Of a stretch of DNA of 64,000 bases, positions 3,961 through 64,000 are shown in pieces. The stretch spans positions 25,895 through 89,894 of the IMG/VR virus record IMGVR_UViG_3300036376_000009; one strand, given 5' to 3'. Source of the stretch: a virus. Taxonomy: Duplodnaviria > Caudoviricetes. Every line of letters begins with the position of its first letter. Position 1 is the first letter of the stretch. Both the position numbers and the translations under genes were made by a program. The notes below the pieces were generated by a model that did not search any database, was not told where the DNA came from, and saw only the letters and a program-made list of their open reading frames with translations.

Positions 3961-4242
3961 GTGATCGTCACGCTCCCGCGGGCCGCTGGCCTGCTCGTCA
4001 AGGGAAGCTGGATGCCCAGGCGGCTCTCGCTCGCGCCGGGCAAGCCGCGGCGGATGGTGGTCGTCGTGAGCTGCCACCGGTGCGGGACCGAGGCCCACAT
4101 CAACCGCGAGGACCCCGAGTGCGGGCACGTCATCAACAGCCTGGGGCACGTCGCCCCCGCGCTGCAGTGCGAAGGGTGCGGCGCCGAGACGGTCGTTCGC
4201 CTCGAGGGGTACGGCCGGGGGCCGGGTGAAGAGTGCGGCTGA
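3961..4242 (+). CDS. Small Cys-rich putative zinc-ribbon protein
   Basis: CHRC and CEGC pairs; abuts both neighbours. Confidence 0.5.
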   Translation: MIVTLPRAAGLLVKGSWMPRRLSLAPGKPRRMVVVVSCHRCGTEAHINREDPECGHVINSLGHVAPALQCEGCGAETVVRLEGYGRGPGEECG

Positions 4243-14815: not shown

Positions 14816-15045
14816 GGTGGGCCGGCGTGATGCTGACCCACGATCGACCGGCAGTCACCGTCGCGTGCGCCGGGCTGGCGCATACCCGCGTCAAAAACTC
14901 ACACGCGTGTCTTTATGCGGGCTTTGACGTTGAGAACGGACGCGCAGCCGGCGCAGGGACACGCGCTTGTGGGGACTTATCGATGCTGGCGGCACGGCGC
15001 CCAACCGTGCCCGGGGACACCGGGCGGACCGAACAAGATCCTGAG

Positions 15046-16635
15046 ATGGCGGTGAGGTTGGTGTTCGAGTCGGGTGGTACCGAGGTCGAACTCGGAGTTT
15101 TCCGCTTGCGTTTGGAGCATCCAGGTGGCAGGATGGGGGGTATGCCCAGCTCCCCCGCTCATCCGGGAGCAGGCTCGTTCGCCATCCCGAACCCGCAGAC
15201 GGCCAAGGAGCCGGTCCTCGGGCGCATCGATGCGCAGCCGAGTCCGCTCAGTACTTCCGTCGACGCCTGGCTCGCGGCCCTGGCGGCCCGCGGCAAGAAG
15301 CCCAACACGATCAAGGCGTACCGAACGTTCATCGGCTCGGCCATCCGCGAGAACGGGTGGCGGACCCCGGCGGACCTGACGTACGAGGCGGTCACCGCCT
15401 GGATGGCGGGCAAGCGCGAGGCCGGCGTGTGGCAGGGGTCCACCTACAACCGCAACCTCACCGCCCTGCGCTCGCTCACCAAGTTCCTTCGCAGGACCAA
15501 GCGGGCCCGCACCGATGAGCTCGAGGACGCCGAGCGGGCCGAGGACGACGGCGGGCCCGGCTCGCGGGCGGCGAGCACCGACGAGGCCCGCGGCATGATC
15601 CGCCTGGCTTGGGCCCGGGGGCTCTCCGACCGCCGGCGGTCGAACGAGGCGGCCCTCGAGCGGCTGTGCTGTTTCAAAGCCGCGCTGCGATCGAGCGAGC
15701 CGGGCGAGTGGCGGTGGAAGCACCTGCAGCTCGACGCGCCGGTGCCGCACATTGCGTGGACCAAGGACGTGCAGAAGAACCGCCGCGCCCAGGACGTCGC
15801 GCTCGACCCCGAGCTGGTGGAGCTGCTGCGGGCGCACCGCGACGCCCGGCGCGGGGCACCGCCCGTGATGGCGGGCGGGCGCCGCAACGGCAATCCCCAG
15901 CTGCGGCGCGTGGATTCGAACGACCCGGAGGCGTTCGTGTTCGCCAGGCGGGCCAGCCGCACGACGTGGCGCGAGGACCGGGCCCGGCTGCAAATCCCCG
16001 GCGAAGATCACCGCGGGCGGCCCTTCAGCCCGCACTCGGCGCGCAAGTGGTTCGAGACCACGCTGCAGCTCGCCGGCGTGCCCGATCGCCTGGTCGACTG
16101 GCTCATGCGCCACACCGGCGACGTCGGCACCCGGTACCTGGATCCGCCGCTGGACGAGCAGCGGCGCGTGCTCAGTCTGCTGCCCGCGCTCTGGCCCGAA
16201 CAGGCCGGCGGCGGGACCGGCGGGGCGGTTTCGACCCAGCGCCGAAGTTATCCACAACGTGAAGATTCTCTCAGTTCGGACTTGACACCAGCTGGCGGCG
16301 TGCCGAATCTGTCTGTCGCTCATCCGGGGCTTGCCCCCACAGACAACCCGGTTCCGGTCCCGTCGCTGCGCCACACCTCGGATGAGCCCCCACCCCTCGG
16401 TGGGACCGATCGGTGCGCGGCGGGACCGGCTCCGGGACTTTCCCAGGGGCCTGCGGCTCCGAGCTTCGGGAAGCACGTCAGGGACGAGACCACGCGTATC
16501 CGGTCGGAAATGCCGAAACCCGGACTCGGACTTTGGAATTCTAACCCGCGAGTAGCAGCAGCGTTGGCCGGCTTCCTTGACGCGTGGGCGAGGCTCCTGA
16601 AAGCAGGAGCCGAAAGTGAACGCCAAGCGTCTTGA
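15046..16635 (+). CDS. int: Tyrosine integrase A; ORF reads through the att core
   Basis: SAM-like N-domain; catalytic R (AALRSSE), K (VQKN), HSAR, H (LMRH), Y (TRYL). Start codon uncertain. Confidence 0.9.
   Translation: MAVRLVFESGGTEVELGVFRLRLEHPGGRMGGMPSSPAHPGAGSFAIPNPQTAKEPVLGRIDAQPSPLSTSVDAWLAALAARGKKPNTIKAYRTFIGSAIRENGWRTPADLTYEAVTAWMAGKREAGVWQGSTYNRNLTALRSLTKFLRRTKRARTDELEDAERAEDDGGPGSRAASTDEARGMIRLAWARGLSDRRRSNEAALERLCCFKAALRSSEPGEWRWKHLQLDAPVPHIAWTKDVQKNRRAQDVALDPELVELLRAHRDARRGAPPVMAGGRRNGNPQLRRVDSNDPEAFVFARRASRTTWREDRARLQIPGEDHRGRPFSPHSARKWFETTLQLAGVPDRLVDWLMRHTGDVGTRYLDPPLDEQRRVLSLLPALWPEQAGGGTGGAVSTQRRSYPQREDSLSSDLTPAGGVPNLSVAHPGLAPTDNPVPVPSLRHTSDEPPPLGGTDRCAAGPAPGLSQGPAAPSFGKHVRDETTRIRSEMPKPGLGLWNSNPRVAAALAGFLDAWARLLKAGAESERQAS
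16248..16256 (+). promoter_or_regulatory. Perfect DnaA box TTATCCACA
   Basis: Exact consensus, ending 26 bp before TTGACA at 16282; function not shown. Confidence 0.4.
16282..16310 (+). promoter_or_regulatory. Putative promoter inside integrase A 3' extension
   Basis: TTGACA-N17-GAATCT; same 229-bp distance to the att element as the copy at 63731. Confidence 0.55.
16318..16474 (+). ncRNA. Candidate novel pseudoknotted RNA (copy A)
   Basis: P1 16318-29/16376-87, P2 16354-72/16412-29, P3 16389-404, P4 16432-47, P5 16456-74; same topology as 63767-63924; G-U pairs favour the + strand. Confidence 0.6.
16511..16528 (-). other. att junction between prophages A and B (tRNA-3'-end-like fragment)
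   Basis: Reverse complement CGAGTCCGGGTTTCGGCA resembles a T-loop/acceptor 3' end; 20/26 identity with 63955-63980 and shared CGGACTCG. Confidence 0.65.
16592..16611 (+). promoter_or_regulatory. Hairpin occluding the RBS of the first early gene of prophage B
   Basis: GGCTCCTG-AAAG-CAGGAGCC; AGGAG (16605-09) lies in the stem; GTG at 16616. Confidence 0.55.
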
Positions 16636-25711: not shown

Positions 25712-26268
25712 GAGCGCGGCATTGGTACCACTGCACCGATCGGCGCAGCGACTCGGAATGGGTTGCCCAGCGCCGCGCGCCGCTCATTCGGGCTGACAGC
25801 GAGCCCGAGACGCCACGACTGTGCGTGGCGCCCAGCGTCGCTCAGGCCCTGGTGGCCGTGTGGTGGTTTCGAGACGTGACGGTGTACATCACGCCCATGC
25901 GGCGCACCGTGCCGCCCAGCGGCGTGTTCGACGCCTGCATGACCCAGGAGCGATGGATCATCCCGCCCGTCAAACTGACGCGCGTGGGCGTCATCCCGTT
26001 CGACTCGATCCACCCCGTGCAGCTTGAGTCCGATCCGAGGGAATACCCCGGCTACCGGGCGTGGGAGAGGCGGGCGTTCCGGCTGGAAGGCCTGTGTCGC
26101 GCTGTTCGAGCCCACCTGCCTGATGCCCACGCGCCCAGCGTCGAACGGTTCGCGGCCAAGTGCCGAGAGTTCTTCGACGCCAAGCAGTGCGAATTGGAAG
26201 AGGAGCGGGCCAAACAGTGGGGCCTGGACGAGCCAGAGTTGCCGGCACGGCGGGAGGTGCTGCCATGA
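25708..26268 (+). CDS. Hypothetical phage protein
   Basis: Coupled overlaps with both neighbours; EPETPRLCVAPSVAQAL. Confidence 0.6.
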   Translation: MRARHWYHCTDRRSDSEWVAQRRAPLIRADSEPETPRLCVAPSVAQALVAVWWFRDVTVYITPMRRTVPPSGVFDACMTQERWIIPPVKLTRVGVIPFDSIHPVQLESDPREYPGYRAWERRAFRLEGLCRAVRAHLPDAHAPSVERFAAKCREFFDAKQCELEEERAKQWGLDEPELPARREVLP

Positions 26269-61971: not shown

Positions 61972-62425
61972 GCTCGACACTCCAAAAGGTCCCGCGCCCG
62001 ACGGGTCCGTGCGGCTTGTTCCGGATGTCGATAGATGGCCCCTCTTGGCCCTCGGCGACGGCACAGGCGTTGTTGAGGTCGATCAGAGAGCCAGCCGAAT
62101 CGCCAGTGGCAACGCTGCGAATCTCAAACATGAACTGTGGCGTGGCGGTTGGCACCGGTGTTCTCCCACCGGGCGAGTCGCGGGCCGGTGACAAACCTTA
62201 CCGCACTCGTTTCTCCGCTGCAACGCCACACAGAATGCGAACAGCCGTGACGCCGCGCAGTCTCTGCACGCCGGCCGCGACCGAGAACCTCCGATAACCG
62301 CCGCAGTCGCGCATGCGTTGCGCACAAGCGCAGACTTTCCCGACGCTCCCAACCCATACCGGTGGCTCTCGTATGAAATCCTTGTAACATGCCCAGACAC
62401 GGAGGTTTCTCGGAGGGGATCGTGC

Positions 62426-64000
62426 ATGGATTCGTTCGCGTTTCCAGGCATAAACAAGGCCGGTTCGCGGTCGCCGCTCCCCGAGCGGCGATTCAAACTC
62501 ACGATTCATGATGACGTGACCGGCGAGATAATCCTTCTCGCACGCTTGCCAGACCTACCAACATCGGCGATACTGAATCTCATGCATACCCCACCTGCAC
62601 ATGCGGGAGGGGCCATGGCTGCCCGTACCCTGGACGGAGCCGCGAACGAGTCCGTGCCCCTTGGGCGGATCGAGGCTCAAAAATCCGAAGTTGCCGCCGC
62701 GTTCGAAGCGTGGAGCGTTCGCGTCAAGACCCGCCTCAAGCCCGCTTCGTACTACAGCTACGTCAAGATCGTGGAGTCGGCGCTGCGCGACAACCCCGGC
62801 TGGACGCGGCTGGACGACCTCACCTTCGACGCCATCACCGCGTACATCGACGGCAAGCTCAACGCCGGGGACTGGGCCCGGCTCACGTACAACAAGAACC
62901 TCCGCGTCCTGCGCGACTTCACGCGGTTCGTGACCAAGGCGAGGCGCCGAGCCGGCCAGGCCGACGCCGCGGACCCGCTCGAAGACGCCGAGCCCCAGCC
63001 GGGCAAGGACTCCAGCGCCGGCGGCCGGGCCGCGACGACGGAGGAAGCACGTGCGCTGCTCCGCTACACGTGCGCACGCGAGGAGGCCGACTCCCGCGCC
63101 ACCGGCAGCCGCTCGATCATCCGGGCGTGCATGTTCCTCGCGGGCATGCGCCCGGGCGAGCCCGAGCGGCTCCGGTGGAAGCACGTCAACCTGGACCACT
63201 CCACCCCGTTTTTCACGTGGACTCCCGAGGTCAACAAGAACGGCCGCAAGGAATTCGTGCCGATCGCCCCGGAGCTGACCGAGTTGCTGCGGGCGCACCG
63301 CGACCGGCTGCGCGAGCGGGTCAAGTCCGACGGCGGTGTCGAGGTGTCCCGGGACCGGCGGAACAAGACCAGCTCGCTGCGCCGCTACGACCCCGACGAC
63401 CCGGAGGCGTTCGTGGTCCCCAAGACCACGTCGGGGTGTCAGTGGGCCAAGGACGTGCGCAAGGCCCGGATCAAGGAGGCGGACTGGCGGGGGCTCCCGT
63501 TCACGCCGAAGGCGGCGCGACGCTGGCACGAGACCACGCTGGTTAAGGCCGGCGTGCCTCAGAACATGGTCGACGCGCTCATGAGACACGCGGTGACCGT
63601 GCCGCGCCGGTACTTCGACCCCACGTTGGAAGAACTCGCAGAAAAATTATCGGTGCTTCCTAAACTCTGGCCGGGAATGGACTTACGCACGATCGACGAA
63701 GGACACGCGCCCAGAAATCTTGAATCCCGCTTGACAGATGAATCGGAAAAGTCGATAGTCAATGAATCCTGGTCGCGTAGTGAAGCGGACTTCACGGACC
63801 CCTCCGCGTCAAAGTCGACCAGGACTGAGCCGCGTGCCTCACGGCGCGTGGAACAGACGACAGCGTACGAGGGGTCCATGAACGCGGGGCCTCGCCCCGC
63901 GTCAAGCGAGCCGGTTGGGCCGCTGCCGCTGGTTGAATCCGTCATGTCGAATCTGGGAATGCCGAGGGGCGGACTCGAACCGCCGACCTCCGGGTTATGA
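62426..64000 (+). CDS. int: Tyrosine integrase B; ORF ends inside the tRNA (antisense)
   Basis: AGMRPGE, VNKNG, KAAR (H replaced by K), LMRH, RRYF. TGA at 63998-64000 is the complement of the anticodon loop. Alternative start 62615. Confidence 0.9.
   Translation: MDSFAFPGINKAGSRSPLPERRFKLTIHDDVTGEIILLARLPDLPTSAILNLMHTPPAHAGGAMAARTLDGAANESVPLGRIEAQKSEVAAAFEAWSVRVKTRLKPASYYSYVKIVESALRDNPGWTRLDDLTFDAITAYIDGKLNAGDWARLTYNKNLRVLRDFTRFVTKARRRAGQADAADPLEDAEPQPGKDSSAGGRAATTEEARALLRYTCAREEADSRATGSRSIIRACMFLAGMRPGEPERLRWKHVNLDHSTPFFTWTPEVNKNGRKEFVPIAPELTELLRAHRDRLRERVKSDGGVEVSRDRRNKTSSLRRYDPDDPEAFVVPKTTSGCQWAKDVRKARIKEADWRGLPFTPKAARRWHETTLVKAGVPQNMVDALMRHAVTVPRRYFDPTLEELAEKLSVLPKLWPGMDLRTIDEGHAPRNLESRLTDESEKSIVNESWSRSEADFTDPSASKSTRTEPRASRRVEQTTAYEGSMNAGPRPASSEPVGPLPLVESVMSNLGMPRGGLEPPTSGL
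63731..63759 (+). promoter_or_regulatory. Putative promoter inside integrase B 3' extension
   Basis: TTGACA-N17-GATAGT; 229 bp before the tRNA discriminator position (63960). Confidence 0.6.
63767..63924 (+). ncRNA. Candidate novel pseudoknotted RNA (copy B)
   Basis: P1 63767-75/63816-24, hairpin 63780-95, P2 63796-804/63869-77 (extendable), P3 ~63829-45, P4 63882-902, P5 63905-24. Confidence 0.6.
63960..64000 (-). tRNA. 3' half of a tRNA with CAT anticodon (Met/Ile2/fMet unresolved), truncated by window; integration site
   Basis: Reverse complement TCATAACCCGGAGGTC-GGCGG-TTCGAGT-CCGCC-CCTCGGC-A: anticodon loop, T-arm, acceptor strand; no encoded CCA. Confidence 0.9.

Follow-up and report, generated by a model that had tools for sequence, protein, structure and literature searches.

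RNA-based immunity is known from the c4 antisense RNA of phages P1 and P7 (the Rfam family C4, RF01695) and from the CI RNA of the satellite phage P4. In IS10/Tn10, the apical loop of a long hairpin RNA, RNA-OUT, pairs with RNA-IN, and the put RNAs of phage HK022 bring about processive antitermination in cis. For the myxophage Mx8, an excerpt of the published account (PMC6070905) places the core of the phage attachment site (attP) inside the coding region of int (intP), the gene for the integrase, names a tRNA gene as the target and reports that integration gives the integrase (Int) a new C-terminus. Here we describe an element that shares features with each of these systems. It was found in a stretch of 64,000 nucleotides (the window), which is the right-hand 64 kb of the 89.9-kb IMG/VR provirus record IMGVR_UViG_3300036376_000009 (positions 25,895 to 89,894). 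The element lies in the integrase gene of a prophage, close to its attachment site (att), and consists of a promoter-like motif followed by two crossing helices, P1 and P2, which are kept in position without sequence identity in twelve integrase genes. We hold it, with moderate confidence, to be a conserved structured regulatory element that shares its nucleotides with the linker codons of the integrase and that most probably acts as RNA, through pairing of a loop with 5' ends.

Crossing helices in copies A and B

Two prophages, A and B, lie in tandem in the window, and each carries a tyrosine integrase gene (Pfam PF00589) at its end, on the plus strand. The gene of prophage B, intB, was read in its integrated form and has the following features.

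62582-64000, plus strand: open frame of intB in the integrated form (start about 62582), with the stop TGA at 63998-64000 inside the antisense tRNA
63731-63759, plus strand: P_tail, promoter-like TTGACA-N17-GATAGT from a promoter consensus scan, within the int linker codons and facing att
63767-63775, plus strand: 5' strand of P1 (P1a), TCCTGGTCG, beginning where the transcript is predicted to start, 36 nt past the first T of TTGACA
63780-63795, plus strand: local hairpin GTGAAG-CGGA-CTTCAC, its 3' arm overlapping the extended P2; not conserved in relatives
63791-63804, plus strand: 5' strand of P2 (P2a), with the perfect core GGACCCCTC at 63796-63804, from sequence reading
63816-63824, plus strand: 3' strand of P1 (P1b), CGACCAGGA, in the apical region of P2, forming 9 perfect bp with 63767-63775
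63830-63851, plus strand: P3 hairpin in the P2 apical region, 9 bp with two G.U on the plus strand; not conserved
63869-63882, plus strand: 3' strand of P2 (P2b), with the perfect core GAGGGGTCC at 63869-63877, from sequence reading
about 63880-63903, plus strand: P4, GC-rich hairpin CGCGGGGC-CTC-GCCCCGCG without a U tract
63905-63924, plus strand: P5, weak hairpin; not conserved in relatives
63960-64000, minus strand: 3' part of the host tRNA-Met(CAT), the attR core (Rfam tRNA, model positions 32-71); the window and the provirus record end here

The strands follow one another in the order P1a, P2a, P1b, P2b, which is a true crossing, and therefore P1 and P2 form a pseudoknot. With one A.C mismatch allowed, the 9-bp perfect core of P2 can be lengthened to 14 positions (63791-63804 paired to 63869-63882). 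An earlier note, made from the letters of the window, had described a perfect 9-bp P1 crossing a perfect, extendable 9-bp P2, and both helices were read as described. The accessory hairpins that it had listed (GTGAAG, P3, P4 and P5) are likewise present, but only P1, P2 and loosely P4 are conserved, a P4-like hairpin following P2 in most relatives. An intrinsic terminator was considered and rejected, as the scan of both strands at 63700-64000 scored nothing terminator-like.

The note had also seen copy A as a mirror of copy B without sequence identity. This was borne out, since the same promoter-P1-P2 module occurs in the tail of the integrase gene of prophage A.

14827-16635, plus strand: intA, from open reading frame reading
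16282-16436, plus strand: copy A module in the intA tail, with TTGACA-N17-GAATCT at 16282-16310, P1 at 16318-16326/16379-16387 and P2 at 16347-16366/16417-16436

The RNAfold z score of copy B against dinucleotide shuffles was -4.16 for the plus strand and -2.06 for the minus strand, and that of copy A was -3.11. A perfect helix of at least 9 bp at the position prescribed for P1 arose in 0.15% of dinucleotide shuffles of copy B, and the alignment score of its P2 lay 3.5 standard deviations (sd) above shuffles.

Conservation across twelve loci

The comparison set comprised 12 integrase tails, namely copies A and B of the window and those of 10 metagenomic phages (designated by L and a number), the integrases of which are ~30-43% identical. 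A profile search of the integrase family yielded 211 cluster representatives at E <= 1e-30. Searching for related loci with IntB only returned none in viral or genome contigs, and an alignment-based search returned only weak, unrelated integrases (Frankia, Nonomuraea and one metagenome contig). The rule that relates P1 to the promoter-like motif was fixed on 5 loci and then applied to 6 newly fetched loci and 1 distant locus (profile E-value 1e-70). A script-made structural alignment of the 12 loci served for counting covariation, again by script, because MAFFT cannot align identity-free sequences and a model built on a single sequence would miss the others. Duplicate contigs of the same phages were identical throughout the element.

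A motif of the P_tail type, consisting of TTGACA, TTGACT, TTGACG or TTGAAT, a spacer of 16-18 nt and a sigma-70-like nAnnnT hexamer, was present in 12/12 loci, 34-84 nt past the codons of an LPxLWP motif and ~221-257 nt ahead of the att core. In 11 of them the second base of the -10 hexamer was A and the sixth was T. P1 started 33-36 nt past this motif in every locus, at the predicted transcript start, and in the first 5 loci it began exactly 36 nt past the first T of TTGACA. In 11/12 loci the pairing of P1 was perfectly Watson-Crick over 8-13 bp; the most distant locus had an interrupted P1 (6 + 7 bp). The sequence of P1 was different in every phage. P2 measured 14-34 bp and enclosed P1b in its apical loop in 12/12 loci; the two strands of each helix covary. 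The rule derived from 5 loci held in all 7 loci fetched later, the interrupted P1 of the distant one included. The earlier note had looked to homologous integrase arms as the place where the helices might prove to be lacking, and in all 10 further arms P1 and P2 are present, their offsets from the promoter-like motif unchanged.

Per locus, no more than 0.75% of shuffles formed a helix of at least 8 bp that satisfied the P1 rule; among 4,320 control anchor positions in the real sequence of the same loci the frequency was 0.56%. The P2 alignment score was 3.5-11.1 sd above shuffles across the 12 loci. As a negative control, a pattern scan gave 5 unrelated, AT-rich IMG/VR loci matching the promoter-and-core pattern, and these had no P1 and no P2. 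Between the helices, the segment from P2a to P1b is 8-16 nt long and unstructured, and that from P1b to P2b is 3-44 nt long (3 nt in L003). Extra copies of the P2 arms were sought elsewhere in the loci, with nothing systematic found.

Near the int start, 9/11 loci have the P1a sequence once more, over 8-11 nt and complementary to the P1b loop; in 8 of the 9 this third copy stands at +12 to +18 from the ATG. Own-locus matches reached at least 8 nt in 9/11 loci and at least 9 nt in 7/11, as against 9/110 and 3/110, respectively, of the cross-locus comparisons. This third site is located in the 10-12 nt loop of a hairpin of 5-8 bp, the stem of which covaries between phages. When L009 and L013 were compared, synonymous codon differences at the site were found to be matched in their P1 strands. 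The comparison was based on exact-match counts in place of RNAduplex energies; the energies between int 5' ends and P2 loops, all GC-rich material, did not separate self from cross pairs. The features at the int start are as follows.

62546-62574, plus strand: P_int, promoter-like TTGCCA-N17-GATACT from the promoter scan, 7 nt before the ATG at 62582
15142-15175, plus strand: intA start hairpin, its loop GCTCATCCG (15157-15165) equal to the P1 5' strand of copy A and complementary to the P1 3' strand of copy A

The geometry TTGnnn-N17-nAnnnT-N7-ATG recurs at the int start of 9 loci, namely copy B, copy A (15097-15144), L002, L003, L009, L010, L013, L014 and L018. Since the promoter-like motif sits exactly 7 nt before the int ATG, the arrangement suggests that the int mRNA of this phage family is leaderless.

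The element sits inside the integrase reading frame, in the linker that leads from the catalytic domain to the att core. IntA and IntB are 43% identical as far as the LPxLWP motif and unrelated beyond it; the conserved catalytic part of IntB ends at its LPKLWP codons (63673), after which a non-conserved linker follows. The G+C content at third codon positions is 0.9-1.0 in the integrase body versus 0.55-0.77 in the tails of both IntA and IntB. Stop codons are absent from the int frame of the tail in 12/12 loci and number 2-9 in the other two plus-strand frames; the tail is therefore translated. The metagenomic homologs have the same layout, with a non-conserved tail of ~110-145 residues followed by a conserved amphipathic helix at the end. 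The att core itself lies in the int frame, which is open across it in 12/12 loci, and the C-terminal helix is coded beyond the core, as seen in attP-form homologs and at the end of IntA. The prophage form of IntB is without this helix, and 13 codons read off the antisense tRNA, the anticodon CAT of which is readable at the window end, stand in its place. The earlier note had placed the element beside att; given the absence of tail stops and the helix beyond the core, it is inside the intB frame and not beside the gene. Programmed frameshifting was rejected, as every locus encodes the C-terminal helix in frame 0 and no slippery heptamer was seen by eye before P1.

There is overlap between the first early gene and the int stop, and the ribosome-binding site of that gene is contained in the final codons of int. 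Transcription of the early operon must therefore come from P_int or P_tail and cross attP; integration severs the operon from both promoters. At window 16511-16635 the junction of the two prophages is a hybrid att, in which the int arm of A is joined at CGGACTCG to the far attP arm of B; IntA therefore bears the conserved end helix of B, and the internal promoter of A faces the early genes of B.

Several other observations concern the same region. Past the Int end helix the last codons read AGGAGC, with the start codon of the next gene 5-8 nt further on (window 16600-16625; int ends of L002-L018), and conservation of the Int C-terminus may partly be that of the ribosome-binding site of the first early gene. 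A peptide motif (V/F)ES(T/P)I occurs ~10 codons before the att core (window 63926-63946, with equivalents in L002, L003, L009, L013 and L014). It varies mostly at third codon positions, which suggests selection at the protein level in an otherwise unconserved tail; its coding DNA is also T-loop-like (GGTTGAATCC). The att cores of free phages are flanked by short inverted repeats, e.g. CGGTAAT-GCCG-ATTACCG (L010 3936-3967; L013 3822-3841; L018 ~3995-4018), which are probably core-type integrase binding sites. A perfect DnaA box, TTATCCACA, is present 31-64 nt upstream of TTGACA in 5/12 loci (copy A at 16248-16256, L003, L009, L016 and L018) and is the sole such site within 2.4 kb. In the intA tail it has the opposite orientation and is therefore a DNA signal rather than a peptide motif. 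Other loci have weaker GTGGAnAAC versions, and copy B has none. Directly upstream of int, on the opposite strand, several relatives have a gene for an HTH_3-type (helix-turn-helix) regulator as the nearest neighbour, an N6/N4 DNA methylase and usually an HNH gene.

L002 4417-4677, minus strand: HTH/methylase/HNH region directly upstream of int
L009 2071-2340, minus strand: the same region
L013 1930-2145, minus strand: the same region

Probable action as RNA and other explanations

We infer transcription from P_tail, an action as RNA and a regulatory function from the arrangement of these sequences. P_tail, as a sigma-70-type promoter, would start an untranslated transcript at about 63766-63767. 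Its first 8-13 nt (P1a) would pair with P1b in the apical loop of P2, and the resulting pseudoknot would sequester the 5' end; the full-length int mRNA must contain the same P1 and P2 sequences too. In most relatives, copy B not among them, the P1b loop may also kiss the hairpin loop at the 5' end of the putatively leaderless int mRNA, and this pairing would block entry of the 70S ribosome. The outcome would be an antisense-like switch that limits translation of Int, controls the att-crossing transcript into the co-oriented early operon, or does both; integration cuts this operon off from P_tail. Three independent sets of compensating stems, together with loop complementarity, all sit at the 5' end of one or other of two predicted plus-strand transcripts; intramolecular pairing alone explains them jointly, most simply as RNA folding.

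Several results weigh against this reading. No RNA sequencing runs were found in a search for runs containing this DNA, which gave only a DNA run of an algae metagenome, possibly its source, and P_tail of copy A scores below the threshold of the promoter scan. The third site is absent from copy B, L004 and L024; copy B still has the int-start hairpin, with a 4-nt loop. In 5 loci tested, the plus-strand fold z was -1.8 to -4.0, which in itself favours the reading, but that of the minus strand was similar on average. Mismatches in P2 comprised 10 G.T and 9 A.C, which is no RNA-type excess of wobble pairs, a count confounded by the plus strand having more A than T and at least as much C as G. When folding was done without G.U, the 1x1 mismatches were 5 G.T versus 12 A.C, a test biased by the A and C richness of the plus strand. 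Ribosomes translating int through the element would melt the fold in the long mRNA, and P1b is masked by P1a in the same RNA, which complicates action in trans. The junction from P1a to P2a, at 9-26 nt, is short for spanning a P2 of 30 bp, and P1 and the full P2 may therefore not coexist in every phage.

The element could instead act as DNA, as part of the P arm of attP. The P1 repeats, one in direct orientation at each of the two promoters and a third inverted, would then be protein sites, bound by the arm-binding domain of the integrase or by a phage repressor, and P2 would be a palindrome or cruciform shaping the intasome or the promoter. We consider this unlikely, though far from negligible. 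It agrees with perfect Watson-Crick pairing without G.T preference, with the about equal folding of both strands, with sites placed as operators would be, at +1 for P_tail and at +12 to +18 for P_int, and with a fairly constant spacing between promoter motif and att core. A different sequence in each phage is to be expected of arm-type sites and operators, which are phage-specific, the perfect DnaA box upstream in 5/12 loci indicates that DNA-level signals exist here, and the HTH protein encoded upstream of int is a candidate binder. However, binding sites account for P1 only and leave unexplained the 14-34 bp P2 arms unique to each phage, the covarying stem around the int-start copy and the constant position of P1b in the P2 apical loop. 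The P' arm is without consistent copies, and the third copy, ~1.1 kb from the core, is too distant for an arm site. Chance pairing of GC-rich sequence in a disordered protein tail or spacer is hardly credible. The region has 60-70% G+C, and long open frames and short helices are common in the window, but all 12 loci fit a position rule that few shuffles satisfy, 7 of them were tested after the rule had been set, and the z of P2 is up to 11.

Transcripts are known to start replication at ColE1-type and T4 origins, and the DnaA box, the promoter and a stably folded transcript could likewise start replication of the phage DNA. The sole perfect box upstream of TTGACA speaks for such a module, as does the position of promoter and structure at the head of the early genes, with replication-type AAA domains downstream in L024. 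We nevertheless think it improbable, as 7/12 loci including copy B are without the box, neither iterons nor an AT-rich unwinding element are present and the third site is left unexplained. A function of the minus strand, in which the hairpins would serve as terminators or processing sites for the host tRNA-Met transcript entering the prophage or would form an RNA antisense to int, seems a shade less probable still. The tRNA gene does read toward the element, plus-strand A.C mismatches (G.U on the minus strand) slightly outnumber G.T, and the best minus-strand z, that of L003, is -5.6. On the other hand, no minus-strand U tract follows the hairpins, no terminator was scored, the conserved promoter, P1 at the start site and the int-start site are all arranged for the plus strand, and non-integrated phage forms, which have no adjoining tRNA, still keep the element. 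The earlier note had further proposed that a transcript continuing 36 nt beyond the element could act as an antisense tRNA or as an att-recognition RNA, a guide for recombination. The complementarity exists, the tRNA 3' end beginning 36 nt after 63924 (Rfam, minus strand), and in the lysogen an unterminated P_tail transcript would read across the tRNA gene in antisense. It is, however, a trivial result of strand orientation, the tRNA lying simply on the other strand. The structured part has neither complementarity nor identity to the att core above the cross-locus control, and the recombinase is an ordinary tyrosine integrase. Both proposals were therefore dropped as very improbable.

Returning to the action as RNA, a wider idea is tentative and rather unlikely, namely that the whole family uses an RNA address system. 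A phage-specific code of 8-13 nt would stand at the 5' ends of two RNAs, the leaderless int mRNA and the att-crossing transcript, and a third time in the long hairpin's loop. A hairpin RNA staying with the prophage would then place the synthesis of integrase and early transcription under phage-specific control or immunity, with no need of a protein repressor and with everything inside integrase codons. If the element does act as RNA, it would represent a new family of structured phage RNA, strongly covarying, with three compensating helix sets in 12 phages without sequence identity, hidden in a coding region that annotation pipelines label simply "integrase". It would also bring together an integrase gene extending across its own attachment site, a promoter severed from the early operon by integration and antisense-type control of a leaderless recombinase mRNA. 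The disordered protein linker would serve as free coding space for nucleic-acid signals, namely the promoter, the DnaA box, the helices and the att core. The 211 cluster representatives put a large comparative data set within reach.

Comparison with described systems

No family of Rfam 15 matches the element. With its covariance models at E <= 1, the tRNA alone was matched in window 62000-64000, and nothing was matched in the element of the 10 homologous loci. The strand order P1a, P2a, P1b, P2b (12/12 loci), with P1 at the first nucleotide of the RNA, is also that of ribozymes like that of hepatitis delta virus (HDV). An HDV-like ribozyme was rejected, as there is no conserved P3/L3, the segment from P2a to P1b being short and unstructured; the segment available for P4 and the J4/2 catalytic C is only 3-44 nt, and P2 is far longer. 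An RNA guide of the IS110 bridge type was rejected on the same grounds as the att guide, namely matches to the att core not above the cross-locus control and a tyrosine integrase as recombinase. The VIPR vrRNA has 10-12 GGYNN repeats ahead of a pseudoknot tail (bioRxiv 10.64898/2026.10.15.759431); it too was rejected, the longest GGYNN run in the 12 loci being 0-3 units.

Like the put RNAs of HK022, the element would be a folded RNA just downstream of an early promoter that heads a long operon of the same orientation, and its helices are maintained through compensatory changes and not through sequence. In contrast, put consists of two adjacent stem-loops, has no pseudoknot and lies outside coding regions.

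The likeness to c4 and P4 CI would lie in a short sequence, shown on a stable phage RNA, that can pair with sites in other stretches of that phage's own transcripts. Regulator and targets are on one strand, so that complementarity must be kept by co-variation, and the matched sequences differ between related phages. Loop complementarity of this kind was found between P1b and P1a in 12/12 loci and between P1b and the int-start loop in 9/11, with far lower values in the cross-locus controls. The C4 model RF01695 had no match in window 62000-64000 or in the element of the 10 homologous loci. Unlike in these systems, the element lies in the integrase frame by attP, and its loop would pair with its own 5' end as a pseudoknot.

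With IS10, the element would share the pairing of a loop with the extreme 5' end, that is the first codons, of a recombinase mRNA, curbing an enzyme that rearranges DNA. RNA-OUT comes from the opposite strand, whereas the partners here are ~1.1 kb apart on the same strand and covary, and the enzyme of IS10 is a transposase whereas the one here is a tyrosine integrase.

A tblastn search with IntB of 50,697 phage records returned no match at E <= 1e-5, neither Mx8 nor any other close relative. As in the excerpt on Mx8, the att core is within the int frame, with a conserved C-terminal segment beyond the core (open in 12/12 loci); unlike here, that excerpt of PMC6070905 makes no mention of a promoter-plus-pseudoknot module. 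By analogy, the logic of the element appears to resemble that of P1/P7 c4, P4 CI and IS10 RNA-OUT, and the layout of its gene that of Mx8.

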